Positions 1-18,126 of a stretch of DNA of 64,000 nt are shown piece by piece (the stretch's first letter is position 1; each line of letters opens with the position of its first letter). The stretch is from Candidatus Woesearchaeota archaeon. Its GTDB lineage: Archaea > Nanobdellota > Nanobdellia > SCGC-AAA011-G17 > ARS1403. Where the stretch lies: the NCBI GenBank assembly GCA_018302705.1, contig JAGVZI010000020.1, positions 1,081-65,080 of the forward strand. Direction: 5' to 3'. A model generated the notes under the pieces. The model saw only the letters and a list, made by a program, of their open reading frames with translations, had not been told where the DNA came from and did no database searches. The position numbers were made by a program, and so were the translations under genes.

Positions 1-546
1 TATCTCCTTGCACTTAAACTCGGAGACCCCATTGAATTTAACGTCTTCAATTGTTATTCCTTCAGGATTCAAACTAAATTTAGAAAAATTATTCAGATGG
101 ATTTCTTTATACCCATTATTCTCTTTTATATATCCATTCTCAACTCTTATAATATCATTATCATGCAAATTCTCCATGGAATTTATATGTTGCACATCCC
201 ACAAGACAACTCTTATAGTTCCGGTCTCGTCCCCAATAACAAAGCTCCCCACTTTTCCAGCCCTCTTCTCATTTTTAAATTCCCTAACGCCGAAATTAAC
301 AATAAGTTTCCCGTTGACATTGGCGTTCCTCATCCCGTTTCTAGCATCTTTAATTTTTATCTCGCCTACGTCCTCAAAGACCTTAACGCCTGCTTCATTT
401 GCTATAATGTGCGCAGCCCCTTCCTTGCTTATTAATCCAGACAGCTGCTCCATCTTATTTTTTATTTTATCCTCAATCTCAAACAAAGTCAAGCCGCTCT
501 CTCTTAGCTTAGAAATAATGGTGTCATAATTCAAGGGTATAATCAT
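1..546 (-). CDS. Replication protein A / SSB-like OB-fold protein, partial (runs off window start)
   Basis: Minus-strand frame from ATG (544-546) reads MIIPLNYDTIISKLRESGLTLFEIEDKIKNKMEQLSGLISKEGAAHIIANEAGV...GKVGSFVIGDETGTIRVVLWD. The GDETG..LWD stretch is a typical archaeal RPA OB-fold. There is no stop before the window edge, so it is absent from the ORF track. Plus-strand ORFs 8..529 and 97..435 are low-complexity antisense artefacts. Confidence 0.55.
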   Translation of the reverse strand, partial: MIIPLNYDTIISKLRESGLTLFEIEDKIKNKMEQLSGLISKEGAAHIIANEAGVKVFEDVGEIKIKDARNGMRNANVNGKLIVNFGVREFKNEKRAGKVGSFVIGDETGTIRVVLWDVQHINSMENLHDNDIIRVENGYIKENNGYKEIHLNNFSKFSLNPEGITIEDVKFNGVSEFKCKEI

Positions 547-577
547 AAAAAAATAAAACTACAACCACTATAAAAAT

Positions 578-1333
578 TTATTGATTATACGGCAGAACAA
601 ATTTCACTGCAACGTCTCCCAAGCCTTTATACATCTCAGCAACATCAAACAGCACATATCCCCTTTCTTCTTTTTCCTCTACTTTGATATTCCACTTAAA
701 GTCCTTGTCATTCCTGCAGTCTTCAAACAAGTTATTTCTCGTCACTCCCTTATCCTCTTCATCCTTAACGCACCCATTTGCTTTCTTTAAAATTTCATTA
801 TAGCTGCTAAAGCTGTAATCCAAAAAATATTCATTGCTTGGCTCAAATCCATACCTAACTCCTTCATAATCAAATTCAATCACGCCATTAAGTTCTATAA
901 CAAGTCTATTATTCTCGTCAATTTTCCACTCGGCATCTATCCCATTAATCCCTCTAGCCTTCAAATATTCATCAAAAAGGGTTTTGAATCTGCTAAAAAA
1001 ATTCTCTTCTAAATTATAAGAAAATAAGCAATCATCTTTCCATATAACATATCCATTTATTTTTCCACACTCCTGCCCATTTAATATTCCCCCATCGTTT
1101 CCAAGTTTTTTTAATGCATTAAAAGAAGAATACTCAATTGCTATATCCAAAAATAATTCAATTTCCCCCTCGTCTAAAGTAGCATTGATGGCAATCTCGG
1201 GAAGTTCTCCGGTGTCAACAATCCTGCTCTCCTCCAGAATTTTTTCTTTGTTCATGCTGACAAATATAATGAACACAAACACAGCAACAACAGTGAAAGT
1301 TGCCAAGAAAAAACTTCCTTTCCTATTCATCCT
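578..1333 (-). CDS. Pilin-like protein with class III (prepilin) signal peptide
   Basis: Internal start gives MNRKG/SFFLATFTVVAVFVFIIFV: a charged N-terminus, then KG, then a hydrophobic helix. It is the last of a tandem series of MNKRG-type genes. Confidence 0.5.
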   Translation of the reverse strand, partial: RMNRKGSFFLATFTVVAVFVFIIFVSMNKEKILEESRIVDTGELPEIAINATLDEGEIELFLDIAIEYSSFNALKKLGNDGGILNGQECGKINGYVIWKDDCLFSYNLEENFFSRFKTLFDEYLKARGINGIDAEWKIDENNRLVIELNGVIEFDYEGVRYGFEPSNEYFLDYSFSSYNEILKKANGCVKDEEDKGVTRNNLFEDCRNDKDFKWNIKVEEKEERGYVLFDVAEMYKGLGDVAVKFVLPYNQ

Positions 1334-1826
1334 CCACCACCAATTCAACAGTAATAAGCCCACCGTTTATGGAAGGAATCATAATCCTCTCCCCTCTGCC
1401 AAGCTCAGATCTGAAAAGCTTCAGCCCGGTTTTTACCCCTCCCTCAGCTTCCTCTCCGGTATCAATCAAGTCCCATCCTTTGGTCGAAGTGATATACTCA
1501 GCCTCGCCGTCGGGATATCGGACCTCCAAGAGATAATTCCTGCCGTTAAAGCCGTAAAAGTTCAATATCTGTCTGCTGGCAGAGCGCAGATCCCTCAAAA
1601 GAAATTTATCCCTGTTTTCGCTTAAGGCAATCATGTCAGCAATTCTCTCCCCTCCAGCATCTGTCCTTAAGTAATTCAGCAAGAATAATCTTTCCTCGTC
1701 GGGAAATTTAACATCTCTATTAGAGTATTTATAGCTGAGAGGATCAAACCCGATGGCAACAACACCTATCATGAGAAATAGCAGAAAATATCCGACTATC
1801 AAATCAGTAATTTCATTGGATTTCAT
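1323..1826 (-). CDS. N-terminally membrane-anchored protein in the pilus locus (FlaF/FlaG-like?)
   Basis: MKSNEITDLIVGYFLLFLMIGVVAIGF: a single N-terminal TM helix followed by a soluble domain. Position within the pilin gene cluster. Confidence 0.35.
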   Translation of the reverse strand: MKSNEITDLIVGYFLLFLMIGVVAIGFDPLSYKYSNRDVKFPDEERLFLLNYLRTDAGGERIADMIALSENRDKFLLRDLRSASRQILNFYGFNGRNYLLEVRYPDGEAEYITSTKGWDLIDTGEEAEGGVKTGLKLFRSELGRGERIMIPSINGGLITVELVVEDE

Positions 1827-1829
1827 TTT

Positions 1830-2228
1830 TTATTTTTTACTATAGCCGACCTCCAGCCTAGCCTCCTTATCATCTACAACAACATATCTGCTAACAACCC
1901 TTTTCTGCTCTAAATTGTCAGTTTCAATCCTCACATCATTCCCCTCGCTCCTGGCCAATTTAACATTGAATGCATATTTGTCGCCCATGCATCTCCTTAA
2001 TATCTCTGCCCCATTTTCTCCATTAATCTTGGAAGCATCCATAACGCCAAAGTCGCCTTCCTTAGAAAAGCACCTCACTACCCTGTTAGCAACTACGCTA
2101 TCCTCGGCGTTGTCCAGCTTGACAAGAAATTTATCCTCGATAGAAATGAATTTGGCAGCAAAACCAATAGCTATCGCAAGTAAAAAAATATACCCTATTA
2201 TAAAGCCAATGTTCTGCATAATTGTCAT
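1830..2228 (-). CDS. N-terminally membrane-anchored protein in the pilus locus
   Basis: MTIMQNIGFIIGYIFLLAIAIGFAAKF. Same architecture as its neighbour; the start overlaps the stop of the upstream gene at 2228. Confidence 0.35.
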   Translation of the reverse strand: MTIMQNIGFIIGYIFLLAIAIGFAAKFISIEDKFLVKLDNAEDSVVANRVVRCFSKEGDFGVMDASKINGENGAEILRRCMGDKYAFNVKLARSEGNDVRIETDNLEQKRVVSRYVVVDDKEARLEVGYSKK

Positions 2229-2611
2229 TAAGAGATCACCACTCTGCTTCCCTCTTTTTTTATATTAATCAGCTCTGTTTTCCCGTTTAATTGCTCTCCG
2301 AAATTATAATTCCCGTCTAAGAATATCTCGCCCCTTCCTTTCATCCCTTCTTCTGACCTGCTCAATCTAATTATACTATCATCGATATCAACATAGTATT
2401 CATCACCAAGGTCATAAGCAAGATTCAAATCACCCTCAACAAGAAAAATGCTGCTAATTGTCAGAGACAGATCCTCCGCCTTTAAGGGATTTAATTTAGA
2501 ATCAGGAATCCCCCTGTAAGCCCAGCCAGAGAGTATTACTATAAGGATTACTAGCACTACGCCTTTGACAAATTCCCAGGAAACAAATTCCTCCTGTCCT
2601 CTTTTATTCAT
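2228..2611 (-). CDS. Pilin-like protein, class III signal peptide
   Basis: MNKRGQEEFVSWEFVKGVVLVILIVILSGWA: MNKRG motif followed by a hydrophobic helix. Confidence 0.6.
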   Translation of the reverse strand: MNKRGQEEFVSWEFVKGVVLVILIVILSGWAYRGIPDSKLNPLKAEDLSLTISSIFLVEGDLNLAYDLGDEYYVDIDDSIIRLSRSEEGMKGRGEIFLDGNYNFGEQLNGKTELINIKKEGSRVVIS

Positions 2612-2650
2612 ACTAAGGATAATTGTGATTTAATTTATAATTGTTTTTAT

Positions 2651-3448
2651 CTATGCTACAGGAATCAAGCTAACAGGTTCACATTGAACAGCACAGTCCG
2701 TTTTAATTAAAGACCCGCTGCTATAGCAATCATACTCAACAGGTTCACCCACATCCCTCGTTATAATCGGAAATTTTACAGTACAAAATCTAGAGCTAAG
2801 TGGATCAATTGCATCCCGGGCCTCATCGCACAATCTTCTGCATTCTTTTCTAGCATCTTCAACGCCGACATTAAAATAGCCCCCTGAACATTTTCCATCT
2901 CTAGTAAAAGCATTGAATATGCAATGTCTCGCTCCCTCGCATTTGCTTCCAATAGAGCCCCCTTCAAATTCTCTCTCGCAAGAATCATCGTTCACAATTA
3001 TCTCTTTCCCGTCAATCTCAAATTTATCAACGCATTTTCCCCTCCCCTCTTTTACTAAACATACTCCATTTTCGCAGTAGCCTCCAGAGCATTCGTCAGT
3101 AGAAGCCCCGCATTTAGTATTATCGCTGCACACTTTTAAAAAATTAAACTCGGTTAGCTTTTCACAGGGAAGATAAAATTCTTTTTCTCCTTTATCATAT
3201 CTGCATATCTGCAAAGGGTCGCTTTTTCTAGAACAGCAAAGAGTTTCCCCGGACTTATCATACTCGCCGCAGATCTTAACAATACTAGGGCTAAATTCAT
3301 TGCTCGAAATCAAATCAAATCCAGCAGGACAGCCTTTGTTCAAAAGGACCTTGCCCCCAATTAATAAAACAATGAAGATAAAGAAGAAGGTCAGTACAAG
3401 ACCAGTAACCTCATTGCTGCTTAAACTTATCTCGCCTCTTTTATTCAT
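2651..3448 (-). CDS. Cysteine-rich pilin-like/secreted protein (class III signal peptide)
   Basis: MNKRGEISLSSNEVTGLVLTFFFIFIVLLIGG, then a 230-aa domain with about 30 Cys (CxxC, CSGGYCENGVC, etc.). Confidence 0.6.
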   Translation of the reverse strand: MNKRGEISLSSNEVTGLVLTFFFIFIVLLIGGKVLLNKGCPAGFDLISSNEFSPSIVKICGEYDKSGETLCCSRKSDPLQICRYDKGEKEFYLPCEKLTEFNFLKVCSDNTKCGASTDECSGGYCENGVCLVKEGRGKCVDKFEIDGKEIIVNDDSCEREFEGGSIGSKCEGARHCIFNAFTRDGKCSGGYFNVGVEDARKECRRLCDEARDAIDPLSSRFCTVKFPIITRDVGEPVEYDCYSSGSLIKTDCAVQCEPVSLIPVA

Positions 3449-3481
3449 GCAATTATCTTGCTTTAAAAAATATATAAATCT

Positions 3482-3673
3482 TTACTTCTCAATCAGCTCA
3501 TTAATATTCTTCCCGGTTTCCTCGGCCCCGGCAGTAGTCGTTTTAATAATCCCCATTAAGCTCCTGAAAACCTCATTAATCTGTTTTCTGAAAACCCACA
3601 CAAGTGTAATCAAAACAATGACTGCAATTATCGCATATACTATCTCATTCCAAGTCAAGCCTTTTTTATTCAT
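3482..3673 (-). CDS. Small pilin-like protein (63 aa)
   Basis: MNKKGLTWNEIVYAIIAVIVLITLVWVF. Confidence 0.55.
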   Translation of the reverse strand: MNKKGLTWNEIVYAIIAVIVLITLVWVFRKQINEVFRSLMGIIKTTTAGAEETGKNINELIEK

Positions 3674-3691
3674 AGAAAAAGAAAAAATAAA

Positions 3692-4048
3692 TCAACAACT
3701 TACACCCAAGCAAGTAATAGATATGGGGGCTTGATTACAACCTGTTGACTCAGGATTGCTTCCAGCAGTTTTTACAATATCAAACTTCTGTGTGCAAAAA
3801 GTAGATCCTCTTTTAGCATCATCAGTATCCAATAATTTTGCTCTTTCACAATAAGCCTGGCAATTCGCCTTGGCCAAATCAACATCGTATCCTGCAGTGC
3901 TGCCGCTGAAAACATTCCTTATCTTCCCAAAGATAGTTGATAATCCTCCAGTAAAGAAAGTAACTATAAGCAGTAATACTATAATCGCAATAATAGCAAG
4001 AACAATCGTATTCATAGAAAGCTCGGTTGCTCCTCTTTTATTCATCAT
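3692..4048 (-). CDS. Pilin-like protein, class III signal peptide
   Basis: MMNKRGATELSMNTIVLAIIAIIVLLLIVTFF. The C-terminal domain has 5 Cys. Confidence 0.6.
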   Translation of the reverse strand: MMNKRGATELSMNTIVLAIIAIIVLLLIVTFFTGGLSTIFGKIRNVFSGSTAGYDVDLAKANCQAYCERAKLLDTDDAKRGSTFCTQKFDIVKTAGSNPESTGCNQAPISITCLGVSC

Positions 4049-4123
4049 ATCACCTTCAATATTAAACTTATATATAAATTATTTGGTTTTTATTTAAACC
4101 TTTCTATTCTAGTCTCAGCTCCC

Positions 4124-5185
4124 CTAAAAGTATTCTAAAGACGTAGTTTTAGAGGCAGGCAAGCACTCTCCTTTTACAAGCATTATAATCCTAATAGCGC
4201 TTCCATCAGATAAAGTAATCATTGCAGACCGGTACAACAAGTCAGGAGCCAGACCATAACCATATACAGTGGATAAACCTTCAATTGAGGCAATGACATT
4301 CCAGCACCCATTTATAGAAAATCGTCCCCTATATTCCTCGCCAAAATATTCTTCAACATGTTTTCCCATGCTATTTATCAAGAAAAGATGTTTCCTTTCA
4401 TTTTCTTTTTCTAACTGACCATCCTTATATAGCCCGCCCAAATCGAGCAGATATTTAATCATCTCGTGGATTTGATAATCCTCGCCAAGGTAACTGAAAT
4501 CATCATTCAGATAGGCAATAATGTCTCGAGCCTCCTCTGGATTAATACCCTTAACATCTTCAAATTCTATATTTGCTATACTTAGTCTTTCCCCCCGCTC
4601 AGTACCACAAAGTTTTTTTTGGGTCACATCAGAAAGTTCACCAGAAAATTCAGCAGCAGTAGCCCTATCTAGAAAATTAATTTTCCTGTCTTTAACATAA
4701 ACAACATCTCCTAATTCATATCTATCATTAACGTTTTCAAATTCCTCGTCAATAAAGAACCCATCAGCCCCCCCATCAAGGTTTAAAAAAGCTAGCCTGG
4801 AAGAAACAGAAAGCGGATACACCCTGGCTTTTCCTTTTTTCTCGGCAAAAATATCCCCGTCCCGGACTCTAACTCCAAAACCTTTTTCTTTTATCGCATT
4901 AAAATTAATTTCTTTAATGCAGTCATCATCGATAACAGCGAAATTATTTCTGAAAAATAAATTAAATTCATCTATTATCTTTTTTTCTTCTTCAGTTAAT
5001 GTGCTCTCTTCTCCAATGGTTTTGCTATAGGCTTTTTTTATCGCCTCAGTATCTGCTATTTTCACAAATCCTTCCTTGACTTCAGCAAAAGAGTCGCTAT
5101 AAACAAAAAAGATTACAATCATAGCTATAAAAATTAAGACCAAGGTGCTAATAGTCCCCCAATGTTCATCTCCTCTCTTGTTCAT
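4124..5185 (-). CDS. Large pilin-like protein (start at internal MNKRG)
   Basis: ORF 4124..5290 contains MNKRGDEHWGTISTLVLIFIAMIVIFFVYS at codon 36. The upstream 35 codons are unlikely to be coding. Confidence 0.5.
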   Translation of the reverse strand: MNKRGDEHWGTISTLVLIFIAMIVIFFVYSDSFAEVKEGFVKIADTEAIKKAYSKTIGEESTLTEEEKKIIDEFNLFFRNNFAVIDDDCIKEINFNAIKEKGFGVRVRDGDIFAEKKGKARVYPLSVSSRLAFLNLDGGADGFFIDEEFENVNDRYELGDVVYVKDRKINFLDRATAAEFSGELSDVTQKKLCGTERGERLSIANIEFEDVKGINPEEARDIIAYLNDDFSYLGEDYQIHEMIKYLLDLGGLYKDGQLEKENERKHLFLINSMGKHVEEYFGEEYRGRFSINGCWNVIASIEGLSTVYGYGLAPDLLYRSAMITLSDGSAIRIIMLVKGECLPASKTTSLEYF

Positions 5186-5333
5186 CTTTCCAAAAACTCC
5201 AGAATAATGTCCACCAGGTCCATAATCTTGTCTCTTAAAAAATAAATAAAAAACAAGATTACAACCAGAGCAATCAAAGCCAGTATCCACATGGCAGTCT
5301 CGCTCAAAGCAAATAATCCTCTTTTATTTTCTT

Positions 5334-6149
5334 TCATCCTATCTCACCGCTGCAAACATTCTCATTTTCATCGAATTCAGAGATCATAATGCCGTCGGGA
5401 TTTTCTGCAAAATAATCCATAAGCCAAGTACCAGTACCTAGAGCTGTACCTCCTAAAAGAGCAGCACTGCCGCATAAAAGAGCGCCGGGTCCAGTTATTA
5501 AGCACACACCAATGACAGCAACGCTTCCTTCAATAGTTCTAGCAATTACACTAGGCTCAGTATTTTCTACAAAGGTGACAGCATACAATTTTCTTTCTCT
5601 AAATAAGGGGTCAGATATACTTGAAATCGGAAAGTTAAAAATAATTCTGTTATTATTAAATCCCTTGAAATAATTCCAATAGGTAGTATCCGTGCTGCCA
5701 ATGTATTCCCTCTGCAGATAATCCTCTAAATCTCTTGCTATTATCTCGGGAACGTCTCCTAAAGGCTCAATCACGTAGCAGTTAAAGCATTGATTATCAC
5801 TCCACTTAATCAAGTTCTTTCCAGCGGGATCCCTTTTTCCCTCGCCCCACATCCAAAAGCACTGTCTCATATTCTCCGCAATCTTTTCCAAGAATTCATC
5901 CTCGTCGAGGTTTTCAAATTCCTTGTAATAAGTATTGCAAAAAACACCCCCGACTCCAAGCTTTTGAAATATTCCCAAAGTCTGGTCAGAAAAATAAACG
6001 CTGATCTGGCAGATCTTCCTCGTAAAGACATCCTCTCTTTCAACGAAGACAACATAAAGAACACCAGCCATCACAGTTAAAATTGCCAGGGATAAAACCA
6101 GTACAAGAACAGCATTCCTCCCAGTTTCCTGTCCGCTCTTATTGAACAC
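5334..6149 (-). CDS. Pilin-like protein, class III signal peptide
   Basis: MFNKSGQETGRNAVLVLVLSLAILTVMAGVLYVVFV. Confidence 0.55.
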   Translation of the reverse strand: MFNKSGQETGRNAVLVLVLSLAILTVMAGVLYVVFVEREDVFTRKICQISVYFSDQTLGIFQKLGVGGVFCNTYYKEFENLDEDEFLEKIAENMRQCFWMWGEGKRDPAGKNLIKWSDNQCFNCYVIEPLGDVPEIIARDLEDYLQREYIGSTDTTYWNYFKGFNNNRIIFNFPISSISDPLFRERKLYAVTFVENTEPSVIARTIEGSVAVIGVCLITGPGALLCGSAALLGGTALGTGTWLMDYFAENPDGIMISEFDENENVCSGEIG

Positions 6150-6240
6150 CTATAATCACCTTCCTCACGAGTAAAATAAACAGGATCGCTAAGAGTAAAA
6201 TCAATATTAACGCAATCACATTTCTAAATCCCATTTTTAT

Positions 6241-8367
6241 TCAAAGTGTGCCTCCAGTGGTCTTCAAAACATTCCTCGCCATAAGTGTCAATATCATCGT
6301 AGTTATTAAAGTAACTAAAATATAAAATATTATGCTCTTAAATAAGTTCTTCCCCAAGCTGCTCTCCTTATTCAACTCATCAACTCCATTTTCAATACCG
6401 TTGGCAAGCACAGTTAGAATATAAGTAATCTGCACTAAATACAAGCCAACAACGAGCTGAAAATAAAACGGCGGGATTACCTCTTCAATAGGAAATATTC
6501 CTTTAATGGTTTCAACACCTACCCCCAATCCAGTGCCGACATCAACTCCGCCAGCGCCTGCAGTTTTTCCGAATACAGTTCCAAGGCTGGCAATAATATT
6601 CGTTATCAGCCCTCCAATGCCGACGACAATCCCCGCAATTAAAGGCGTTATAAAATTAATCTGGCTTCTCATGTCGCTTAAGACGTCAGAAAGCAGATCC
6701 TTCAGCCTCTCATTAACTTTGTGTATCGCACTCATGTAGTTGCTTATGCTCATCAAAGCATGTGCAACAATCTTAGGTCCTCTTTTAGCGCTCTCAATTA
6801 GCACTTCCATGCTGCTGCTTATTACTTTAGAAGGAAAGCTCAATATCGCTCCTCTCTTAACATTAAAAATCGCTTCTCTTAGCCCCATTCCCAATCCTCT
6901 CAAATTATTATTAACCATACTGAAGAATTTCCCGCTCATAGTACCTTCCATGTTCTCAGCCACTTTTGAAAAAGCCGACTCAGCAGGCAGTCCATCTTCA
7001 ATCCTATTCCCCAGCTGAAATAAGCTTCCAGAAAACTCTCTCTCTAATTCCCTCGTCTCTTTCCTAATTTTCACAAGACTTCTGCTTTTCAGTTTATAAT
7101 AAACACTCAAGCTGATAGCAACGCTAAATGGTATTGCCAGGCTCAGGACCAATGCGCTAAATCCAAAAGGTCCGATATATCCCTTCTCGCCGTTTTTATA
7201 TCCGAAAATCCAGTCGCTATTCAATAAGATATTGTCAGGAGAAAGCCAGTGAATCCAAAGCGGGGAAAACCCAATAGCCAGCACAAATAAAAATAAAGGA
7301 ATGGCAAGCACAGCAGGGCTAATAAGCATAGTTCCAATTCTCAAATATTTATAATTCTCAAAAAGATCTTCTTGCAGGGAAAAGCTCTCTCCCTCTCCAG
7401 CAGGTCTTTTAACCAATAATCTATTCCCAATGAAATAAACAAGCACAGGCAAAATTAAGTTGTAAAAAAAAGCAATCCAATACCATTTAATTCCAAGAAA
7501 GGCCCCCATCAAAGGTAGCATTATCAAACCCAAAACAGGGAGGATTATCCCGAGCATGTACAAAGTTGTTATCGGAGATTTCAATTCTTGGGCGTAATGC
7601 AGCATCTTCTCGTAAGTGCCGTCGAGCATCGTCGTCAAAGCCCTTTCAAGAATCTCTAGCCTTCTAGCTTCTTTCGGCTCAAACAAGCTGCTCTCGATTA
7701 AATGGAAAGAATTCACAAAATCTATATTATAATTTTTCCAATTTTCAAGATAAGCATCCAAGGATTCCTGCACAGTATTATACATTCCAGTCTCAATGTT
7801 CCAAAAAACTTTTTTCAAATCGCTTGAGAGGGGGTCTTGAATGTGCTGGGCTGCGAATTTCACAGCATGCTCTAAATTAGAAGTGTGCCTCATATACATA
7901 ACAACGTATAATATGCACAGCACCATTTGGTTTTCAGCCTGTATTCTCCACCTCAGTGCTTTCTGATTTGGATGATCGCTAAGAAATTTCAAAGTTAAAA
8001 TTCCCAGGGCAATAAAAAACACGGGAAAAAATAGCAGAATGCTTTCCATCGCAAGCCCGATTACAAAAATAGCTATCCCAATTAGAATTAATCCAAAAGC
8101 AGAGAAGAAAGCAAGGCTCATCACCCCTTCGGGAGTTGTTTTTAAGCCGGTAGTCTGTATGCTCTCCCATAGTCTCTCGTTGTATTTCTCACTCGGCTTT
8201 ATAGTTAAAATATTTTTGCAGAAATTGCAACTCTTTTCATAAAGGCTCAGCTCTTTCCCAATCTGCTCTTCCTTAAATTTCTTGTACTCTCCTGAAAATC
8301 CCTCGCCGAATTTATTCTCTAGTTTTCTCTTATATTTCTCTAGGATATCCTCGACATCGTTTCTCAT
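6241..8367 (-). CDS. FlaJ/TadC-like polytopic membrane protein (type IV pilus/archaellum platform)
   Basis: 708 aa with many TM helices. It is adjacent to, and co-oriented with, the FlaI-like ATPase and the pilin genes. Confidence 0.55.
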   Translation of the reverse strand: MRNDVEDILEKYKRKLENKFGEGFSGEYKKFKEEQIGKELSLYEKSCNFCKNILTIKPSEKYNERLWESIQTTGLKTTPEGVMSLAFFSAFGLILIGIAIFVIGLAMESILLFFPVFFIALGILTLKFLSDHPNQKALRWRIQAENQMVLCILYVVMYMRHTSNLEHAVKFAAQHIQDPLSSDLKKVFWNIETGMYNTVQESLDAYLENWKNYNIDFVNSFHLIESSLFEPKEARRLEILERALTTMLDGTYEKMLHYAQELKSPITTLYMLGIILPVLGLIMLPLMGAFLGIKWYWIAFFYNLILPVLVYFIGNRLLVKRPAGEGESFSLQEDLFENYKYLRIGTMLISPAVLAIPLFLFVLAIGFSPLWIHWLSPDNILLNSDWIFGYKNGEKGYIGPFGFSALVLSLAIPFSVAISLSVYYKLKSRSLVKIRKETRELEREFSGSLFQLGNRIEDGLPAESAFSKVAENMEGTMSGKFFSMVNNNLRGLGMGLREAIFNVKRGAILSFPSKVISSSMEVLIESAKRGPKIVAHALMSISNYMSAIHKVNERLKDLLSDVLSDMRSQINFITPLIAGIVVGIGGLITNIIASLGTVFGKTAGAGGVDVGTGLGVGVETIKGIFPIEEVIPPFYFQLVVGLYLVQITYILTVLANGIENGVDELNKESSLGKNLFKSIIFYILVTLITTMILTLMARNVLKTTGGTL

Positions 8368-8422
8368 AAACCCTCTTTTTAAAAAACAAAAGAATGCAGA
8401 TATATAAAATATGCGAATTAAA

Positions 8423-10681
8423 TTAAATTCTCTTGGCAGCCCTCTTCAGCCACTCTTCCCATTCAAAATAGATCCTCTTCGGATCCAAATATCCAATTTC
8501 TTTTTTAACTCCCTCGCTAACCCTGTGATAATGATCATTCGCAGCAATTACAAACTTAGCTTCCAAAATATTTTTATTCAATTTAGAGTAATTAACAAGC
8601 GCTTCTTTCATCTTCGCCCTTAATATTATATTGTCCCAGACAGCATCCCAATGCCCGGCCCATTCAGGAATGTTGCTCGCTATATTCTTTATCACTTCGC
8701 TGTTTCCATTTATCAGCTCATCAGTAGCCTGCAAAGAATCTGTTTTGGCATCATATTTCATCAAGTCAACAAAGCCATTTTCTTTCAAAGGATCATCTTC
8801 CCATTTTTTTCTCACTTCAGTTATCTGCACAATTCTCCTCCATTTGCTCAATCCATCAGCGCTTTTAACAGGATTGCATATAACAATCACATCAGTTGCT
8901 TTGAAGCTGGTTTTAGGAACTTGCAGATCATTTACAACCCTATCATAAACACCATAAGGAGAATCGCCATGAATAGTTCCTGCAACTACGTTTGCTAAAG
9001 CTCCAATTCTCATCGCTTCATAAAGTGCTTTACTCTCCAGAGATCTAATCTCTCCGACGATAAGTGCACTATCCCCCATTCTTAATGCAGCCCTAATTCC
9101 TTCTTCAGCACTTACTTCAGTAGCCCCTCCAGCTAATGCGCTTCTAACTTTTAATGGTTGAATATTGTATCCAAGCCCCCTCATAGCATCTACACCAAGT
9201 TCCATTGTGTCTTCGACCGTAATTATTCTGTACTTTCTCATCACCTCAATAAGCAAAGATCCAAGTACACTCGTTTTTCCAGAGCTCCTCGTTCCAGCTA
9301 TAAGTATTGTTCTTGCACCTTCCACAAGAAAACTAATCAGTCCAGCTCCAAGAGGGCTTATCATCCTATTTTCAATGAACAAAGGCAGAGTCCATGGTTC
9401 ATCCCTATGTCTTCTAAAAGCATAAGCCAGTCCTTTAGGATTTAATGGCCTGCCGACGATAGCAACTCTCGCCCTAGCACCAGGAACACTTAATTCAGTA
9501 TCCAAAATTGGATTGGCCTCATCCAAAGGCCTACCGCTTAATATCCTGAATTTAGTCGCCCAGTTCTCAGCATCCTCCGCACTAGGGATAATATTTGTAA
9601 CGCACTCATCATATTTTTGGTGCACAATGAATATAGGGGTGATTCCAATAGGCCCGTTAATAGTTATATCTTGTATTTTCTCATCTTGAAGTAAAACTTC
9701 CAGCAGCCCGAACCCGACAGTGTACCTTACCAATATCGAGGTTAATTCATTTAATTCTTTCAAGCTCAGCTTAACATTCTGCCTGTCAGCAAGCTCCTGC
9801 AGCAGATCCCTGCCAATATTGAAGAAAGTCATCCTCATCCTCTCGGGGTCAATAAATTCCTCTGCCCTTGGCTTGTGCTCTATCAAGACATTCCTTGCCA
9901 TGTCAAGCAGCTCTTGTTTGTCCTCAGTTAATTTAAATTCAGGCGATATTATGTGATACAGATATTTGATGTCCTCGGGTACAGAAAGAATAGTAACATC
10001 TGCATTTCCGATTTTATAGCTGTCTATTTCTTCCCCATCAACAGGAATCCTCGACATCAATCTAGTAAACATAAAATTAGGAGTTATCTCAGCCCGGAAC
10101 AGCTGCCTGTAAATTTCCCGGCCGCCAACTTGGTATCCGTCTAATCTTTTCCTGACGATCCAGATTATTTTTGTCTTATCAAGGAATCCAAAAAATTCAG
10201 TTAATATCTCGATTAAAATCTCGCAAGATTTGATATCGGGCTCATCAACCAGTTTTCCTAAAATAATTTTTTCTTCTCTGATTATCCTCCTTAATTCAAC
10301 ATAAACCCCTACAGGATCCCTGATCAGATTTCTAACCAGGCCCCTGACAACCCCGATTTTGCTGGCTAAATATTTATATCCCTCGTCGGCAGGCATGGCT
10401 AAAAATTTTCCTTGCTTTATAACATGGTTATACAGTCCGGCAATCTCTGCAAGTAATTGCACTTGGCTGTAGCTGTAATTATAATTTCTTTGCTGCACCA
10501 AAACAACCCTGCTAACCCCTGCATTTTCAACTAATTTGTTTATAACATCCTGCATGCACTCCTCGCTGTCCTCAATGCTTGGTATTATCGTCTTTTTAGT
10601 ATAATCAATCCTCAAAACCCTCTCGCTTCCCTCATTAACAATCTCATATTCCCTCTCTTTCTTGTTTTCAAAAAGCGCCAT
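8423..10681 (-). CDS. FlaI/GspE/VirB11-family secretion ATPase with long N-terminal extension
   Basis: Walker A IAGTRSSGKTSVLGSLL. ALIVGEIRS motif typical of FlaI/PilB ATPases. 752 aa. Confidence 0.75.
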   Translation of the reverse strand: MALFENKKEREYEIVNEGSERVLRIDYTKKTIIPSIEDSEECMQDVINKLVENAGVSRVVLVQQRNYNYSYSQVQLLAEIAGLYNHVIKQGKFLAMPADEGYKYLASKIGVVRGLVRNLIRDPVGVYVELRRIIREEKIILGKLVDEPDIKSCEILIEILTEFFGFLDKTKIIWIVRKRLDGYQVGGREIYRQLFRAEITPNFMFTRLMSRIPVDGEEIDSYKIGNADVTILSVPEDIKYLYHIISPEFKLTEDKQELLDMARNVLIEHKPRAEEFIDPERMRMTFFNIGRDLLQELADRQNVKLSLKELNELTSILVRYTVGFGLLEVLLQDEKIQDITINGPIGITPIFIVHQKYDECVTNIIPSAEDAENWATKFRILSGRPLDEANPILDTELSVPGARARVAIVGRPLNPKGLAYAFRRHRDEPWTLPLFIENRMISPLGAGLISFLVEGARTILIAGTRSSGKTSVLGSLLIEVMRKYRIITVEDTMELGVDAMRGLGYNIQPLKVRSALAGGATEVSAEEGIRAALRMGDSALIVGEIRSLESKALYEAMRIGALANVVAGTIHGDSPYGVYDRVVNDLQVPKTSFKATDVIVICNPVKSADGLSKWRRIVQITEVRKKWEDDPLKENGFVDLMKYDAKTDSLQATDELINGNSEVIKNIASNIPEWAGHWDAVWDNIILRAKMKEALVNYSKLNKNILEAKFVIAANDHYHRVSEGVKKEIGYLDPKRIYFEWEEWLKRAAKRI

Positions 10682-10728
10682 CTAAAGGAAAAAGCTGAAG
10701 TTAAATAAAAGGGTTTTGGTGAAGAAAA

Positions 10729-11100
10729 TCAAATCAATGCAAATAATTTATTAGCTATCTCAACAATTTTTTCTTTATGATTGATAATATAGTTTTTTGA
10801 GATGATAAAACCTTCATAAGAAACTCGATTCCTGTTGTCTCTCATTTCTTGTAAAAATCTCCTGTTCTGCTCGCCAAGACTATATTTGCTTGCAACATAA
10901 TCAATTAGTTCTTGATGAGCGCCATCGCCTTTAGCTTTAACACCTTCCTTTAAAGTAATGGCCTCCATCAAATTGTGAATTATGTCATAAAAATCAATTA
11001 AAGTATTTGTTGGATATTCTTCCATATTAGTCTTCTTCAATCTTTCTAAAGTAACTTCAGCCAACTTCTTCAAGGCCTTTGCCTGTTCTCTGTCCTGCAT
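10729..11100 (-). CDS. HEPN-domain protein (toxin partner of MNT)
   Basis: About 120 aa, all-helical, immediately downstream of a nucleotidyltransferase gene in the canonical MNT-HEPN order. The Rx4-6H motif is not clearly intact (RDNRNRVSYEG). Confidence 0.5.
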   Translation of the reverse strand: MQDREQAKALKKLAEVTLERLKKTNMEEYPTNTLIDFYDIIHNLMEAITLKEGVKAKGDGAHQELIDYVASKYSLGEQNRRFLQEMRDNRNRVSYEGFIISKNYIINHKEKIVEIANKLFALI

Positions 11101-11111
11101 AACTCTTGAAA

Positions 11112-11651
11112 TTATTTGTATCCCTCCAAGAAACCACTAAGAACAAAACCATTAATAATGTTGTTCTTTAATTCAACAGGATAAGTTAAAAAATTTTCAT
11201 TGAAATGTAACTGGATTGTCCTTCTTAATTTTTTTTCGAATTTTTCAGTTTTAATATCCTCTTTTTTGCATTCCAAATAAATATCAATATCACTTTGTTC
11301 ATTATCGTCTCCGTGCTCATAGCTACCAAAAACAATAATAGACTTAGGGGACAATTTTTCCTCAAGGTACTCAATCAAGCCAGATTCAAGAAGGGAATAA
11401 ATATTGAATATTCTCTTGTTTTTTCTAAATCTTTTTTCAGGAGTATTAGCTTTATACAAAGGAAACTTTCTTCGTCCTTTTTTCTCCACGCTCCTTAAGA
11501 TTAATCCATCTTTTACCAATCCATCAAGAAGGCTTTTAACAGAAGTATGTGCAAGTTTAATCCTCCTGCTTATGTCAATCAGGTAGTGTTGTTTAGTGGG
11601 TTCATTAAAAAAAATCTCCAGTATTTTCCGTGTATTACTTTTTTGTAACAT
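11112..11651 (-). CDS. Minimal nucleotidyltransferase (MNT) with N-terminal winged helix
   Basis: GSYEHGDDNEQSDIDIYL matches the GSx9-13DxD nucleotidyltransferase motif. The N-terminal ~80 aa look like a wHTH. Confidence 0.7.
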   Translation of the reverse strand: MLQKSNTRKILEIFFNEPTKQHYLIDISRRIKLAHTSVKSLLDGLVKDGLILRSVEKKGRRKFPLYKANTPEKRFRKNKRIFNIYSLLESGLIEYLEEKLSPKSIIVFGSYEHGDDNEQSDIDIYLECKKEDIKTEKFEKKLRRTIQLHFNENFLTYPVELKNNIINGFVLSGFLEGYK

Positions 11652-11697
11652 ATATTACATAATTATAACATATATTACATTTTTGTAATATATAAAC
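11641..11697. promoter_or_regulatory. Direct + inverted repeat operator-like element at the MNT start codon
   Basis: ttttgtaACATATATTACATaattatAACATATATTACAttttTGTAATATATaaac: two direct copies of ACATATATTACA. The second copy forms a 10-bp inverted repeat with TGTAATATAT. Confidence 0.4.
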
Positions 11698-11795
11698 TTT
11701 TCTAAAAGGAAAGGTAAATGGAAAAGTTCGTTGTCCATGTTTCTTAAAATTAAAAAAGGAATATTTTAAATAAAACTTAATATTAACAAATAGAA

Positions 11796-12155
11796 ATGCA
11801 GGAAATCTCAGCCCAGCCGGAGATTATTGGGAGATTAAGGATTAATGAAGCTAGATTGGCGAACATAAGAGAGAGGCTGACTGTAACAGACAACAACATG
11901 GTTGAAGAATTCAGGAGAATGTCGGAGCAGATAAAAGAGCTCAATGCAGAATTGAAGCAGATAAAAAACGAATCATTCAGATTAAGAGAGGCACTAAAGG
12001 ATGTGATCAAAGAGATGAGCTCATTTGCCAGCTCTCAGGAATTAAAAGTCTTAGAAAGATATATTAACACATGGAACCCATTAAACTTCATGACGGAAAA
12101 AGAGGTTCTGTCATTAATAAAGAAAAATGCCGAATCTGCAAGCAAGGATAAATGA
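11796..12155 (+). CDS. Coiled-coil protein
   Basis: 119 aa, heptad-rich (EEFRRMSEQIKELNAELKQIKNESFRLREALKD). Confidence 0.4.
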   Translation: MQEISAQPEIIGRLRINEARLANIRERLTVTDNNMVEEFRRMSEQIKELNAELKQIKNESFRLREALKDVIKEMSSFASSQELKVLERYINTWNPLNFMTEKEVLSLIKKNAESASKDK

Positions 12156-12741
12156 ACTAAAAAAAGCAGGAAAGCCAAATAGCGAGATAATTGAAAATCT
12201 GAAAAAAGAAGGTCACCTTGCCCAGGATATATATGATGCAATGTCCACTAATGAAAGTCTTTATGAATTAACCCCCCCGACGCCATCAGAAGAAATGGGA
12301 TCGGAAAGCATGGATGAAGATGAAGATTCTTATCAGCCAATGTCAGGACTCCCGGAAACAGGAAATTTCATCCCGTCGCAAAAATTCCCAGCGCCGTCTA
12401 AAATCCCCCAGAGGCAGAGCATAGAGGAAATAGAGGAAATAGCTGAATCTATTATAAGTGAAAAAATCGACGAGCTCAGTGTTAACATCAACGATATAAG
12501 TTTGTGGAGGGAGAAAACATCTTCAGAAATAGAAGCAATAAAGCAGGAAATTCTAAGAATAAGAAATCATATGGAAAATCTGCAAGCAACAATGCTCGGA
12601 AAAGTAGAGGATTACAGGAAGTCAATCACAGACGTCAGCATAGAAGTAAAAACCCTCTCAAAAGTCCTGGAAAAAATCCTACAGCCGTTGACAGAGAATG
12701 TAAAAGAATTATCAAGGATTACAGAGAGATTAAAAAAATAA
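12127..12741 (+). CDS. Coiled-coil protein with acidic linker
   Basis: 204 aa. N-terminal small domain, acidic low-complexity middle, C-terminal coiled coil. Confidence 0.4.
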   Translation: MPNLQARINELKKAGKPNSEIIENLKKEGHLAQDIYDAMSTNESLYELTPPTPSEEMGSESMDEDEDSYQPMSGLPETGNFIPSQKFPAPSKIPQRQSIEEIEEIAESIISEKIDELSVNINDISLWREKTSSEIEAIKQEILRIRNHMENLQATMLGKVEDYRKSITDVSIEVKTLSKVLEKILQPLTENVKELSRITERLKK

Positions 12742-12743
12742 AA

Positions 12744-13271
12744 TTAATCTCGTAGGCTTTCAAAGCTCAACAGCCTGACAGCAAAAGAAAATATTATCAG
12801 CACAACTATCGTCGTTAAAACTTTAACGTTGAAAATAGCTTTATGTATAGAAGGCCCAGCTCCTTCTCCTTCTGGTGTCCCCCCCACAAAAAAAGGGCCA
12901 TAAACAACAGTCAGTCCCCCGACAACGATTATTATAGAAAGGATAATTATCGTCCAATAGACAGTGGTGTTTTTAAAGATACTCTCGATAACATCCCCCT
13001 TAAGCCCTCCAAACATAAAAATAAGTAAGACAGAAAATGCAACCATCACCATAATAATAAACCAGGGTGCAATTACAGAAATAAATTCCATCGCGCCAGG
13101 CATAGCAGCAAATAAAGCAGCCATAGCAAATGCAATTATCGCATTAATATTAATGCTATCGCCAAAGAATTTTGTCTTGCTCAGCGCAGCATAAATAATA
13201 GCGTAAATTAAGATAAAAAGGAAGATGGGTATTAAAAACTCCCCCAATCCGCTGTCAAGAAGGCTTACCAT
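12744..13271 (-). CDS. Polytopic membrane protein, paralog 1 of 3
   Basis: Shares the N-terminal pattern ...LPFLLVFAV.F.IL.K...FG(E/D)... with the next two genes. 4-5 TM helices. Confidence 0.5.
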   Translation of the reverse strand: MVSLLDSGLGEFLIPIFLFILIYAIIYAALSKTKFFGDSININAIIAFAMAALFAAMPGAMEFISVIAPWFIIMVMVAFSVLLIFMFGGLKGDVIESIFKNTTVYWTIIILSIIIVVGGLTVVYGPFFVGGTPEGEGAGPSIHKAIFNVKVLTTIVVLIIFSFAVRLLSFESLRD

Positions 13272-13286
13272 CTCTACTTACCCTCT

Positions 13287-13844
13287 TTATTTCTTTCCAC
13301 CAGTTAACCCCTTCACTAGATTCTCAAAGCGATCGCCTAAACTCTTCTTGTCTCCTCCAGGTTCTCTGACAATCAGCCAGATAACTAAAACAAAAACGCC
13401 AACTACTATTAATGTTCCAACATCCTGCTCAGTCATTTCTCCAACAAGGGGGACATCCCAGTCAGCAGCAGCTCCAAGAGCCCATATTACAGAGATAATG
13501 CCTACAACAGCGCCCCAAAATAGCCATCCACCACCCCATTCAGATTTCCCTGAAAAGATTCCAACAACCAAGATGAGCATTAGCAGCACGAGTACTATCA
13601 TTGAAACCCTCGGCAAAAACCCAACTAGCACCTCGACGATGGCTGTAGATGAAACCAAAAACGCAGCTAATATCAAGCTGACAATGGCATCAACGTTTTT
13701 ATTCTCTCCAAATAATCTTATCTTTCTGAGAATCGCAAAGGTAACAGCAAACACCAGCAAGAAGGGAAGAACGACATCAAAGCCCCCGACATCTGCAAAG
13801 CTACCAACAACGTCATTGAAATCAATGTTCTCAAACAAAGCCAT
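13287..13844 (-). CDS. Polytopic membrane protein, paralog 2 of 3
   Basis: MALFENIDFNDVVGSFADVGGFDVVLPFLLVFAVTFAILRKIRLFGENK. Confidence 0.5.
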   Translation of the reverse strand: MALFENIDFNDVVGSFADVGGFDVVLPFLLVFAVTFAILRKIRLFGENKNVDAIVSLILAAFLVSSTAIVEVLVGFLPRVSMIVLVLLMLILVVGIFSGKSEWGGGWLFWGAVVGIISVIWALGAAADWDVPLVGEMTEQDVGTLIVVGVFVLVIWLIVREPGGDKKSLGDRFENLVKGLTGGKK

Positions 13845-13895
13845 TTTATCACCCTTTTTTTATTTTTATTTAGTAAACATTCCTTTCTTATAAAT

Positions 13896-14480
13896 CTATT
13901 CTTTTCCAGCGCTCGGTCTTCCTTCATCTCCCTTAGTTATATATATTATCGCCCAGATCACAACACCAAGCAAGATAAGTGTAGCAACCAGAGTGCCGCT
14001 CCAAAATTCAAGTACGTAATTAAAAGCAAACCCGAGCCAGCTCTGCTTTTCATTCGCAGGAATATTTCCCAAAAACACAGATATAACTCCAACAAACATT
14101 ATTATCATGAGAAACACCATCCATCTCCCGCTTAATTTCTCATATAAAGTATTGTCGGGCTTCATAAATATTCCTATCATCAGCAAGAAGGATAAAGCAA
14201 CAATGATCAACAAGCTAACTTGGGGCAAAGCAGTATTAATAACACCCACTATTTTCGTAGCCGCAACAACAAGCATTGCAAGGACGAAGGCAACAATGGC
14301 ATTCAGGTTCTTTCTCGGATAAGTCTCCTTTCCAATCTTCTCCTCTCCAAGAATCCTTGTCTTCTCTAAGATCCCGAAAACAACTGCAAAAACAAGAAGA
14401 AACGGAAGGATTACATCAAATATTCCAAACTCTCCCAAAAAATCTAGGGCGTTCCTCAAAACAGACATGTAAGAAGACAA
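13896..14480 (-). CDS. Polytopic membrane protein, paralog 3 of 3
   Basis: MSSYMSVLRNALDFLGEFGIFDVILPFLLVFAVVFGILEKTRILGEEK. Confidence 0.5.
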   Translation of the reverse strand: MSSYMSVLRNALDFLGEFGIFDVILPFLLVFAVVFGILEKTRILGEEKIGKETYPRKNLNAIVAFVLAMLVVAATKIVGVINTALPQVSLLIIVALSFLLMIGIFMKPDNTLYEKLSGRWMVFLMIIMFVGVISVFLGNIPANEKQSWLGFAFNYVLEFWSGTLVATLILLGVVIWAIIYITKGDEGRPSAGKE

Positions 14481-14525
14481 AGCTAAATTCTTATTTAAAG
14501 ATTGTGGTTTTCAGTTTTCAACTTT

Positions 14526-18066: not shown

Positions 18067-18126
18067 CTCCATCATTTTTCAAGGAGGGAACAGAAACTTC
18101 TTAAACCTCGTCTCATAAACAATTTT

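Follow-up and report, generated by a model that had tools for sequence, protein, structure and literature searches.

A probable type IV filament operon of Woesearchaeota with fast-evolving prepilin-like subunits, and peptidoglycan hydrolase domains in its relatives

Introduction

What kind of machine is encoded by an unbroken run of minus-strand genes in which a secretion ATPase and a polytopic membrane protein are followed by a series of small proteins with short, positively charged leaders? This question was raised by positions 578-10681 of a 64,000-nucleotide stretch of contig JAGVZI010000020.1 from a Candidatus Woesearchaeota archaeon (the whole stretch is referred to here as the window). 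Woesearchaeota are among the most widespread DPANN archaea, and to our knowledge none has been well characterised in culture. An earlier interpretation made from the letters of the window alone (the sequence-only reading) had proposed a type IV pilus-like locus of a DPANN-like archaeon. The latter point was settled by the 708-amino-acid (aa) polytopic protein, hereafter the platform protein, which is 100% identical to J4443_03525 (MBS3151420.1) of a Candidatus Woesearchaeota archaeon. On the evidence described below, the operon probably encodes a type IV filament (type IV pilus-like) machine specific to this lineage, and the filament most likely mediates contact with other cells; host attachment is inferred.

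Archaeal type IV filament systems have been classified (Makarova et al. 2016; Sivabalasarma & Albers 2026, 10.64898/2026.04.22.720090), and some DPANN archaea have been reported with system 1 (Epd), Aap-like minimal systems or subsystem 4A (10.64898/2026.04.22.720090). Type IV pili in DPANN are expected and the operon is not categorically new; the DPANN literature searched says only that 'type IV pili genes' are present. The operon is now defined as a conserved unit in at least 476 species genomes, near-universal and poorly annotated in a major uncultured lineage.

A secretion ATPase with intact motifs and a long N-terminal extension

The 752-aa product of the first gene gave a Pfam T2SSE match at an E-value of 2.2e-14 (53 bits against a gathering threshold, GA, of 24.9), and its best matches in the PDB were afGspE2 of Archaeoglobus (2oap, 2e-30), CpaF (1e-23) and FlaI (3e-19). 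The PDB alignments begin at about residue 291-314, the core occupies about residues 290-650, and the motifs are intact (Walker A at 463, GTRSSGKT; Asp box at 486; Walker B at 539; His box at 568). As the scores against FlaI (139 bits, cut-off 550), TadA (126 bits, cut-off 373) and the bindosome ATPase BasE (60 bits, cut-off 1000) lay far under the NCBIfam cut-offs, the protein is, as judged by sequence score, a member of the superfamily and of no named NCBIfam equivalog. Ahead of the core lies an N-terminal extension of about 200-290 aa, which makes the protein about 200 aa longer than FlaI or afGspE2. The N-terminal 300 aa had no sequence match in the PDB, and no similarity was found between the N-terminal region and the N-terminus of a Haloterrigena ATPase described below. 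Among Woesearchaeota relatives the ATPase is 59-67% identical over its full length (from residue 12), the extension included. An extended GspE/FlaI-family ATPase had been called in the sequence-only reading, and the T2SSE match, the four motifs and the N-terminal extension bear this out.

A platform protein recognised by fold and genomic position

The second gene had been read as encoding a FlaJ/TadC-like protein, an assignment that held by fold (OutF/EpsF) and by genomic position and that found no Pfam T2SSF match behind it. An AlphaFold2 model built with 20 homologues (pLDDT 78, pTM 0.74) was all-helical, with at least 8-9 transmembrane (TM) helices and two cytoplasmic helical bundles. Foldseek comparison of this model with the PDB returned the cytoplasmic domains of OutF (5nbg) and EpsF (2vma), best at probabilities of 1.0 and 0.99; over these matches the probability was 0.97-1.0, the target-normalised TM-score 0.68-0.75 (best 0.74-0.75) and the root-mean-square deviation 2.9-3.2 Å. 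A further match, at a probability of 0.69, was to PilC in the machine model of the type IVa pilus (3jc8_Ca). Whole-chain Foldseek E-values were poor because the match covers one domain only. Neither the protein nor its 20-sequence profile found anything relevant among PDB sequences, and a single one of 20 platform homologues matched Pfam T2SSF, weakly (E 1.5e-3). Homology of the family to the 'secretion system protein' of Haloterrigena plasmid pHTUR04 is clear, hhalign giving 99.8% and an E-value of 7e-29 over about 480 columns. We conclude that the platform protein represents a divergent GspF/PilC/TadC/FlaJ-like branch, recognisable by fold and context and not by a standard hidden Markov model (HMM).

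A shared leader motif marks the downstream proteins

Gene coordinates were based on an open reading frame (ORF) listing over window positions 1-14000, in which all the minus-strand genes of the sequence-only reading were found where it had placed them. Eight of the ten small-to-medium operon proteins, 51-353 aa in size, start with M(x0-3)-N/R-K/R-K/R/S-G, the Gly being followed by 0-10 partly polar residues and then by a hydrophobic stretch of about 20 residues. Seven consecutive genes of this kind, with products of 63 to 354 aa, had been described previously. The motif proteins proved real and heterogeneous; they number eight, however, as the 51-aa gene at 5182-5337 had been missed, their sizes differ accordingly from the range first given, and they are not strictly consecutive, two motif-less genes (1830-2228 and 1323-1826) preceding the last of them. 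The products of these two, of 132 and 167 aa, had been recognised as N-anchored proteins outside the motif group, and both do lack it.

The 82 ATG-started ORFs of the window were tested for the pattern ^M.{0,5}[KRS]G together with a Kyte-Doolittle hydrophobic window above 2.0. Seven passed, all of them in the operon, and the GTG-started 271-aa gene makes an eighth; the clustering of the motif in the operon is far beyond chance. The motif is kept in orthologous operons with only about 50% platform identity. Across 309 ORFs from related operons, chosen only by [KR][GA] near the N-terminus and a hydrophobic segment, position -3 was K in 85% and position -4 was N in 50%, neither position having been imposed by the search; position -1 was G in 81% and A in 18%, and position +1 was Q, D or E in 37%. 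In most of the eight operon proteins polar residues come after the Gly, and their layout, G-Q/D/E-x-L-S-x-N..., is one that we take to resemble the Q-x-S-x-E type of euryarchaeal class III leaders.

A prepilin peptidase is encoded elsewhere in the lineage

No A24 prepilin peptidase was found in the window, by a Pfam scan of its membrane proteins or by tblastn with the enzyme of a marine relative, or in the 10 kb past its start, in agreement with the earlier statement that none could be recognised in the window. In that relative (locus L011; related loci carry L numbers throughout) a 292-aa PF01478 protein is encoded 3.7 kb downstream of the operon and has both catalytic Asp motifs (...SDIKTTEVPD... 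and ...WGGGDAKLL...). Woesearchaeota and Nanoarchaeota commonly encode homologues of about 290 aa, and four of these are on contigs, of lengths 431447, 66072, 31704 and 535886, that bear related operons. One homologue, MBS3151768.1 ('prepilin peptidase', Candidatus Woesearchaeota archaeon), carries the two catalytic motifs, and its accession number is 348 away from that of the window platform protein, MBS3151420.1; it is encoded on a 128.8-kb contig from the same Joint Genome Institute (JGI) metagenome as the window contig, with matching composition. Given the accession proximity and this co-occurrence, it very probably comes from the same metagenome-assembled genome as the window.

The operon is conserved across the Woesearchaeota

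More than 3600 homologues of the platform protein were found, all named Woesearchaeota, Nanoarchaeota or 'archaeon', and the family is present in at least 476 GTDB species-representative genomes, all of Woesearchaeota or Nanoarchaeota, including complete AR20 (CP010426) and CP066683. The ATPase gene adjoins the platform gene, which lies immediately downstream, in each of the 39 related loci whose upstream sequence extends for at least 9 kb. Where the downstream sequence was at least 7 kb long (41 loci), 7-11 class-III-like ORFs come directly after the platform gene in 25 loci, in a stereotyped order of sizes (tiny, about 280, about 50, about 350-500, about 125, about 60, variable 190-680, about 125, about 150, about 170 and about 250 aa). 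The window operon, transcribed in the order 752, 708, 271 (GTG start), 51, 353, 117/118, 63, 265, 127, 132, 167 and 250 aa, matches it gene for gene. The ATPase and the platform protein are 45-67% identical across related loci, and the pilin-like proteins evolve fast. As the platform protein and the pilins escape the Pfam models scanned, annotation that relies on these may overlook or under-call the operon.

A candidate major pilin and its companions

The 117-aa protein is the candidate major pilin. Its family comprises 65 homologues found by word index and 644 representatives at E<=1e-3 in a library of 1.84 billion proteins, and its gene is the most widely detectable pilin gene, found by tblastn in 19 of 36 related loci. 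In the family alignment the first 70 residues are very conserved (MNKRGQGGLSMNTIIVAIIAIIVLLLIVTFFTGG...), with G5 invariant and K3 nearly so, and the C-terminal part is variable with six conserved Cys; such conservation is classic for a pilin. An AlphaFold2 model (pLDDT 75) has a continuous helix over residues 11-49 and a small head. When the family profile was compared with the PDB, the best match was an archaeal Pilin_N filament subunit (8fjs), in register and not significant (E 0.73), and hhalign against a haloarchaeal Pilin_N protein was likewise not significant.

The 63-aa protein shares 39% identity with the N-terminal part of the 117-aa pilin and has a sub-threshold Pfam Flp1_like match (5e-6, 26.3 bits against a GA of 33.5) that recurs weakly in relatives, many of whose loci have an orthologue of 58-66 aa after the major-pilin gene; a profile search of the PDB with the 63-aa protein returned nothing. 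Counterparts of the 51-aa protein, 49-57 aa long, stand at the equivalent position in relatives. Cleavage would reduce the 63-aa protein to about 58 residues and the 51-aa protein to about 44, each a helix without a head, in the style of Flp or Epd.

The remaining proteins were placed by orthology and by position. The 271-aa protein has a 33% identical orthologue in L006, and a gene for about 270-300 aa stands at its place in the stereotyped order. The 353-aa protein, in a slot filled by a gene for about 350-500 aa in relatives, has no Pfam or NCBIfam domain and is a candidate minor pilin or adhesin. The 127-aa protein has a 32% identical orthologue in L006. The 132-aa protein is 36% identical to the product of L006 15777-16196, whose start, MNKKGG, carries the motif; the 167-aa protein has no Pfam match and is motif-less both here and in its orthologues in L004, L005 and L006. 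Orthologues of the 250-aa protein are found in L004 and L005.

The 265-aa protein contains about 26 cysteines and gave two collinear BLASTP matches to the 117-aa pilin, one at the N-terminus (E 2e-4) and one in the head (residues 47-103 against 188-241, E 8e-4). On the strength of these alignments it appears to be a paralogue of the 117-aa pilin with a Cys-rich insertion of about 140 aa. It is kept only in close relatives (L013, L014), its slot being a hypervariable 'cargo' position. An HMM of the 117-aa pilin head found only orthologues of that pilin and no cargo proteins of distant relatives, and the pilin-with-insertion architecture is therefore established only for the 265-aa protein and its close relatives.

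Some cargo proteins of related operons carry peptidoglycan hydrolase domains

A Pfam scan was made of 115 large (>=180 aa) class-III-like proteins from related operons. The only recurrent known domains were those of peptidoglycan hydrolases (SLT 4, Peptidase_M23 3, Amidase_2 2, NlpC/P60 1 and SLT_2 1), the other matches being DUF6861 (2), a collagen repeat (1) and a weak Flp1_like (1). The hydrolase domains, sometimes two to a protein, occupy two slots, the first of which is the variable gene after the major-pilin and Flp-like genes (Table 1). Wall hydrolases of the relatives are thus built as prepilin-like proteins within the operon. By alignment, the 414-aa protein of L006/L011 is an orthologue of the window 250-aa protein with an inserted SLT domain, and this domain has the canonical ...QESSG...GVMQI... 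motif. The 265- and 250-aa proteins of the window have no hydrolase domain recognised by Pfam or NCBIfam. A separate observation was made on a 553-aa cargo-slot protein (L024:5757-7415), for which Pfam gave nothing at E<=0.001 and whose C-terminus contains ...HYNGRAIDIR... and ...GGEWWHYEY...; judged by eye, we take this C-terminus to resemble a VanY/M15-type (LAS) peptidoglycan peptidase.

Hydrolase cargo supports cell-cell contact with bacteria as a function of the family, and only indirectly so for the window genome; remodelling of the cell's own wall is an alternative role for the hydrolases. Murein transglycosylases encoded by Woesearchaeota have been interpreted as pointing to predation on bacteria (PMC9723730), and archaeal peptidoglycan hydrolases can kill bacteria, Nanoarchaeota being rich in them (PMC12352652). 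Pili and class III signals are mentioned in neither of these papers, and the link between hydrolases and the operon appears not yet to have been made in the literature searched. A tentative and rather doubtful proposal that goes further is that the operon family is a Woesearchaeales-wide 'armed pilus', in which minor or tip subunits in two hypervariable cargo slots carry wall hydrolases in many species and the filament attaches to hosts or prey that are bacterial, not archaeal, and locally breaches their wall, the window copy being an adhesin variant with a Cys-rich pilin-derived domain. If true, the predatory lifestyle suspected of Woesearchaeota would have a concrete organelle behind it.

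Weighing a type IV filament against other explanations

Of the four core parts of a type IV filament system, each is either present or very probably so. A type IV pilus-like locus, as first proposed from the letters of the window, is the reading to which the results point because of the family and motifs of the ATPase, the GspF/PilC fold of the platform protein, the conservation of the leader (recovered in the 309 related ORFs) and the A24 peptidase of the lineage. By analogy with characterised type IV filament systems, the parts, folds and conserved motif observed here would be expected to work together as follows. Eight proteins would be made as prepilins with the short positive leader M-x-N-K-[KR]-G, and the 5-7-residue leader would be removed after the Gly by an A24 aspartic prepilin peptidase whose gene lies elsewhere in the genome. 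The hexameric ATPase would dock on the cytoplasmic bundles of the 708-aa platform, and ATP would drive the extraction of mature subunits via their hydrophobic N-terminal helices and their polymerisation into a surface filament. The bulk subunit would be the 117-aa Cys-containing protein, the 63-aa head-less Flp-like protein or both, the fast-evolving 271-, 353-, 265-, 127- and 250-aa proteins would be minor or tip subunits with binding or enzymatic specificity, and the two motif-less bitopic proteins may be assembly accessories. It is predicted that the A24 peptidase cleaves after NK[KR]G, that the 117-aa or 63-aa proteins form the filament and that cargo subunits set the host range.

Several results weigh against such a filament. 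The 708-aa platform protein gave no Pfam T2SSF (PF00482) match at E<=1, hhalign of its family against a canonical haloarchaeal T2SSF protein gave a non-significant probability of 0.6%, and hhalign of its N-terminal against its C-terminal half revealed no significant internal repeat. No Pfam or NCBIfam pilin, archaellin or class III signal match above threshold was obtained for the 10 operon proteins, nor any Pfam pilin family match for 82 diverse members of the 117-aa family. The head of the 117-aa model is mostly helical and not beta-sheet, and Foldseek matched this model to no solved pilin in the PDB. A strict FlaFind-like pattern, [KRDE][GA][ALIFQMVED][ILMVTAS]x3, which is an approximation of the published one (Szabo et al. 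2007), passed two of the eight operon proteins, a low rate that follows from the 0-10 polar residues separating the Gly from the hydrophobic core. Only 0-3 class-III-like ORFs lie directly downstream in 16 of the 41 related loci, and pilin genes are not always linked to the ATPase-platform pair. Finally, the closest non-DPANN relative of that pair, on pHTUR04, has no annotated pilins.

That relative, which is also the closest annotated one found, is the pair HTUR_RS24145 (T2SS/T4SS ATPase) and HTUR_RS24140 ('secretion system protein') of Haloterrigena turkmenica (L007, NC_013747.1 11420-26271). The core of its ATPase is 43% identical to that of the window, whereas the N-terminal regions are unrelated; HTUR_RS24140, like the window platform protein, is without a Pfam T2SSF match and is encoded directly after the ATPase. 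The pair is plasmid-borne and is followed by no run of prepilin-like genes, with a DUF7311 gene upstream and DUF7382, a DEAD/DEAH helicase, ParA and a DUF87 ATPase around it, a context that hints at a wider, possibly different use of the module outside DPANN.

With the archaeal type IV filament systems the window operon shares an ATPase, a polytopic platform, several class-III-signal substrates and, very probably, a separate A24 peptidase. Like Epd-type systems it has head-less short pilins (63 and 51 aa), and the Q, D or E often found at +1 in EppA/Epd-type substrates is also seen in the related-operon ORFs; its ATPase conforms to the variable, subsystem-specific N-terminal domains of archaeal type IV filament ATPases (10.64898/2026.04.22.720090). 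System 1, however, has two platform genes (10.64898/2026.04.22.720090), whereas the window operon has the single 708-aa gene, and with one platform gene and a 63-aa Flp1_like score below GA the operon does not fit either Epd/system 1 or the Tad-like systems on these two points. What sets it apart from known archaeal systems is an HMM-invisible platform, a conserved long ATPase extension, pilins without a Pfam model, a very short fixed M-x-N-K-[KR]-G leader and cargo slots inside the operon. The bacterial Tad/Flp pilus is similar in its ATPase core (CpaF 1e-23, TadA 126 bits) and in its short head-less pilins, to which the weak Flp1_like signal corresponds, and JGI annotations name some homologues TadB and CpaA. 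The window system nevertheless differs from it in that all scores are below the family cut-offs, one fused platform takes the place of TadB and TadC, there is no secretin or outer-membrane part, and many of the pilin-like proteins are large.

Among the other explanations, the one that survives best, though we regard it as unlikely, is a bindosome- or pseudopilus-like display or secretion device, a short cell-bound structure that presents or releases adhesins or, in relatives, wall hydrolases, with no long pilus. It would accommodate the heterogeneity of the large prepilin-like proteins, the SLT, M23, Amidase_2 and NlpC/P60 domains in relatives and the weak BasE match of 60 bits, and archaeal type IV filament machines have been proposed to be commonly 'functionalised' with class-III-signal binding proteins (10.64898/2026.04.22.720090). 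In the Sulfolobus bindosome, BasEF, class-III-signal proteins with non-pilin functional domains likewise rely on the ATPase and platform of a type IV filament machine, and the hydrolase-bearing prepilin-like proteins of the relatives are the analogous case here. The bindosome cargo, however, is made up of solute-binding proteins whose genes lie at distant ABC-transporter loci (10.64898/2026.04.22.720090), whereas in the Woesearchaeota operons the cargo genes lie inside the operon and encode cell-wall hydrolases; similarity to BasE is negligible, the score being far under the cut-off of 1000. The conserved small pilin family and the head-less Flp-like subunits are, moreover, typical of filament-forming major pilins, and a display device is compatible with a pilus carrying cargo subunits, so that the two are not exclusive.

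A pilus for the uptake or exchange of DNA, like competence pili or the Sulfolobus Ups pilus, with retraction or contact bringing DNA to a genome-reduced cell, was considered improbable. Here and in distant genomes the operon is flanked by Hef helicase/ERCC4 nuclease upstream and by RPA and RadA downstream, the closest non-DPANN pair is plasmid-borne and lies by a DEAD/DEAH helicase, ParA and a DUF87 ATPase, and the Ups pilus has a conserved DNA-repair neighbourhood (10.64898/2026.04.22.720090). The synteny, however, also covers unrelated housekeeping genes (TraB) and may be no more than a sign of strong collinearity among genomes of this taxonomic order, the window yielded no ComEC-like channel, no retraction ATPase and no DNA-binding pilin, and the cargo domains of relatives point to cell walls and not to DNA.

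It is very improbable that the MNKRG proteins are ordinary uncleaved signal-anchor membrane proteins to which the ATPase and the polytopic protein are unrelated. This would explain the missing pilin HMM matches, the mostly failing strict FlaFind-like pattern and the two operon members without the motif. Nevertheless, Gly or Ala at a fixed distance from the Met, together with K at -3 and N at -4, is kept in about 300 fast-evolving proteins, and such conservation argues for a recognition or processing site beyond the positive-inside rule. Co-linearity with the ATPase-platform pair over hundreds of species and the dedicated A24 peptidase of the lineage also oppose it. An archaellum, the rotating motility filament, to which FlaI as the best NCBIfam name for the ATPase and the FlaJ-like size and TM number of the platform protein might point, is effectively refuted by a FlaI score of 139 bits against an equivalog cut-off of 550, by the finding of no FlaB archaellin or FlaF/G/H/C/D/E/X among the operon and neighbouring proteins scanned and by the large N-terminal extension of the ATPase, archaellum ATPases being the most minimal (10.64898/2026.04.22.720090); the sequence-only reading had named a match to the archaellum alone, with archaellins elsewhere, as one result that would overturn it, and the scans did not give this result.

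Gene layout and genomic neighbourhood

The probable filament operon is transcribed from the 10681 side toward 578, and its junctions are tight, neighbouring genes overlapping or lying no more than 91 nt apart (Table 1). The GTG start of the 271-aa gene is preceded at 5 nt by a Shine-Dalgarno-like GGAAGGTGA, and the 117-aa pilin gene has its own upstream TTTATATA-like element and a GAAGGTGA ribosome-binding site. TATA-like elements also stand upstream of several operon genes; in an AT-rich genome such as this one they were not counted as evidence. A 31-aa ORF lies between the platform gene and the 271-aa gene, overlapping the start of the latter. ORFs of 31-41 aa with one hydrophobic helix are found at the equivalent place in L004 and L011, and ORFs of about 35-45 aa, some beginning MKRRG, stand there in many other loci; on these similarities the window ORF may be a gene, its status as a candidate being uncertain.

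Table 1. Features of the window operon and hydrolase-bearing cargo genes of related loci. Window positions are given unless a locus is named; a slash follows the Gly of the leader motif.
Feature	Position	Strand	N-terminus, basis or slot
Secretion ATPase, 752 aa, GspE/FlaI/TadA superfamily	8423-10681	-	Pfam T2SSE, PDB matches, motifs
Polytopic platform protein, 708 aa	6241-8367	-	Fold of model and genomic position
Candidate tiny hydrophobic ORF, 31 aa	6139-6234	-	MGFRNVIALILILLLAILFILLVRKVIIGVQ; similar ORFs at equivalent place in relatives
Prepilin-like protein, 271 aa, GTG start	5334-6149	-	MFNKSG/QETG..., then hydrophobic helix
Very short prepilin-like protein, 51 aa	5182-5337	-	MKENKRG/LFALSETAMWILALIALVVILFF...
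Large prepilin-like protein, 353 aa	4124-5185	-	MNKRG/DEHWGTISTLVLIFIAMIVIFF...
Candidate major pilin, 117 aa (118 from upstream ATG, (M)MNKRG)	3692-4045/4048	-	MNKRG/ATELSMNTIVLAIIAIIVLLLIVTFFTGG...
Flp/Epd-like short pilin, 63 aa	3482-3673	-	MNKKG/LTWNEIVYAIIAVIVLITLVWVF...
Cys-rich prepilin-like protein, 265 aa	2651-3448	-	MNKRG/EISLSSNEVTGLVLTFFFIFIVLLIGG...
Prepilin-like protein, 127 aa	2228-2611	-	MNKRG/QEEFVSWEFVKGVVLVILIVILSG...
N-anchored protein, 132 aa, without KRG motif	1830-2228	-	MTIMQNIGFIIGYIFLL...
N-anchored accessory protein, 167 aa, motif-less	1323-1826	-	
Last prepilin-like protein, 250 aa	578-1330	-	MNRKG/SFFLATFTVVAVFVFIIF...
SLT+Amidase_2	L023:14590-16227		First slot
SLT+M23	L034:15174-17219		First slot
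M23	L044:14354-15472		First slot
Amidase_2	L005:16701-17900		First slot
SLT	L053:20458-21900		Second slot (last gene)
SLT	L011:12341-13582		Second slot (last gene)
NlpC/P60	L017:16377-17372		Second slot (last gene)

GC skew is strongly negative (-0.24 to -0.40) over window positions 1-10000, exceeding that of most of the window; in the operon this presumably reflects the coding-strand purine bias of minus-strand genes. Scans of the 64-kb window for tRNA genes and Rfam families gave no matches.

Directly upstream of the ATPase gene, on the minus strand at 10729-11651, are genes for a nucleotidyltransferase (NTP_transf_2/Polbeta, 179 aa) and a 123-aa partner, a pair whose layout, judged by eye, we take to be like that of an MNT/HEPN-type toxin-antitoxin. 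The pair is nearly missing from related loci (0-4 matches in 80). Beyond it lie a divergently transcribed pair of coiled-coil-looking proteins of 119 and 204 aa (11796-12741, plus strand) and then a PRC-barrel protein of 100 aa with three paralogous multi-TM proteins of about 175-194 aa (12744-14828, minus strand), none of which matches a Pfam family besides PRC. The PRC-barrel, multi-TM and coiled-coil genes are found together with the ATPase-platform pair in 31-37 of the 39 related loci and could be accessories of the machine, or merely an instance of strong synteny.

Recombination genes flank the operon here and in distant genomes. Hef helicase and ERCC4 nuclease lie upstream (16570-18792, plus strand), and RPA and RadA are found downstream (L009:10785-13789) in the window genome and in distant genomes; this arrangement may be coincidental synteny. 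The operon ends with the 250-aa gene, and in the contig extension (loci L001 and L009) RPA, a YdjM-family gene and RadA come next. Past RadA, L009:14608-19547 holds an AbiEii-family gene, a gene for a 917-aa protein without a Pfam match and further unknown genes, where the equivalent place in L011 is taken by aS21, EF-1-beta and the A24 peptidase. From its gene content, the AbiEii/917-aa segment looks like an insertion that displaced the ancestral neighbourhood.

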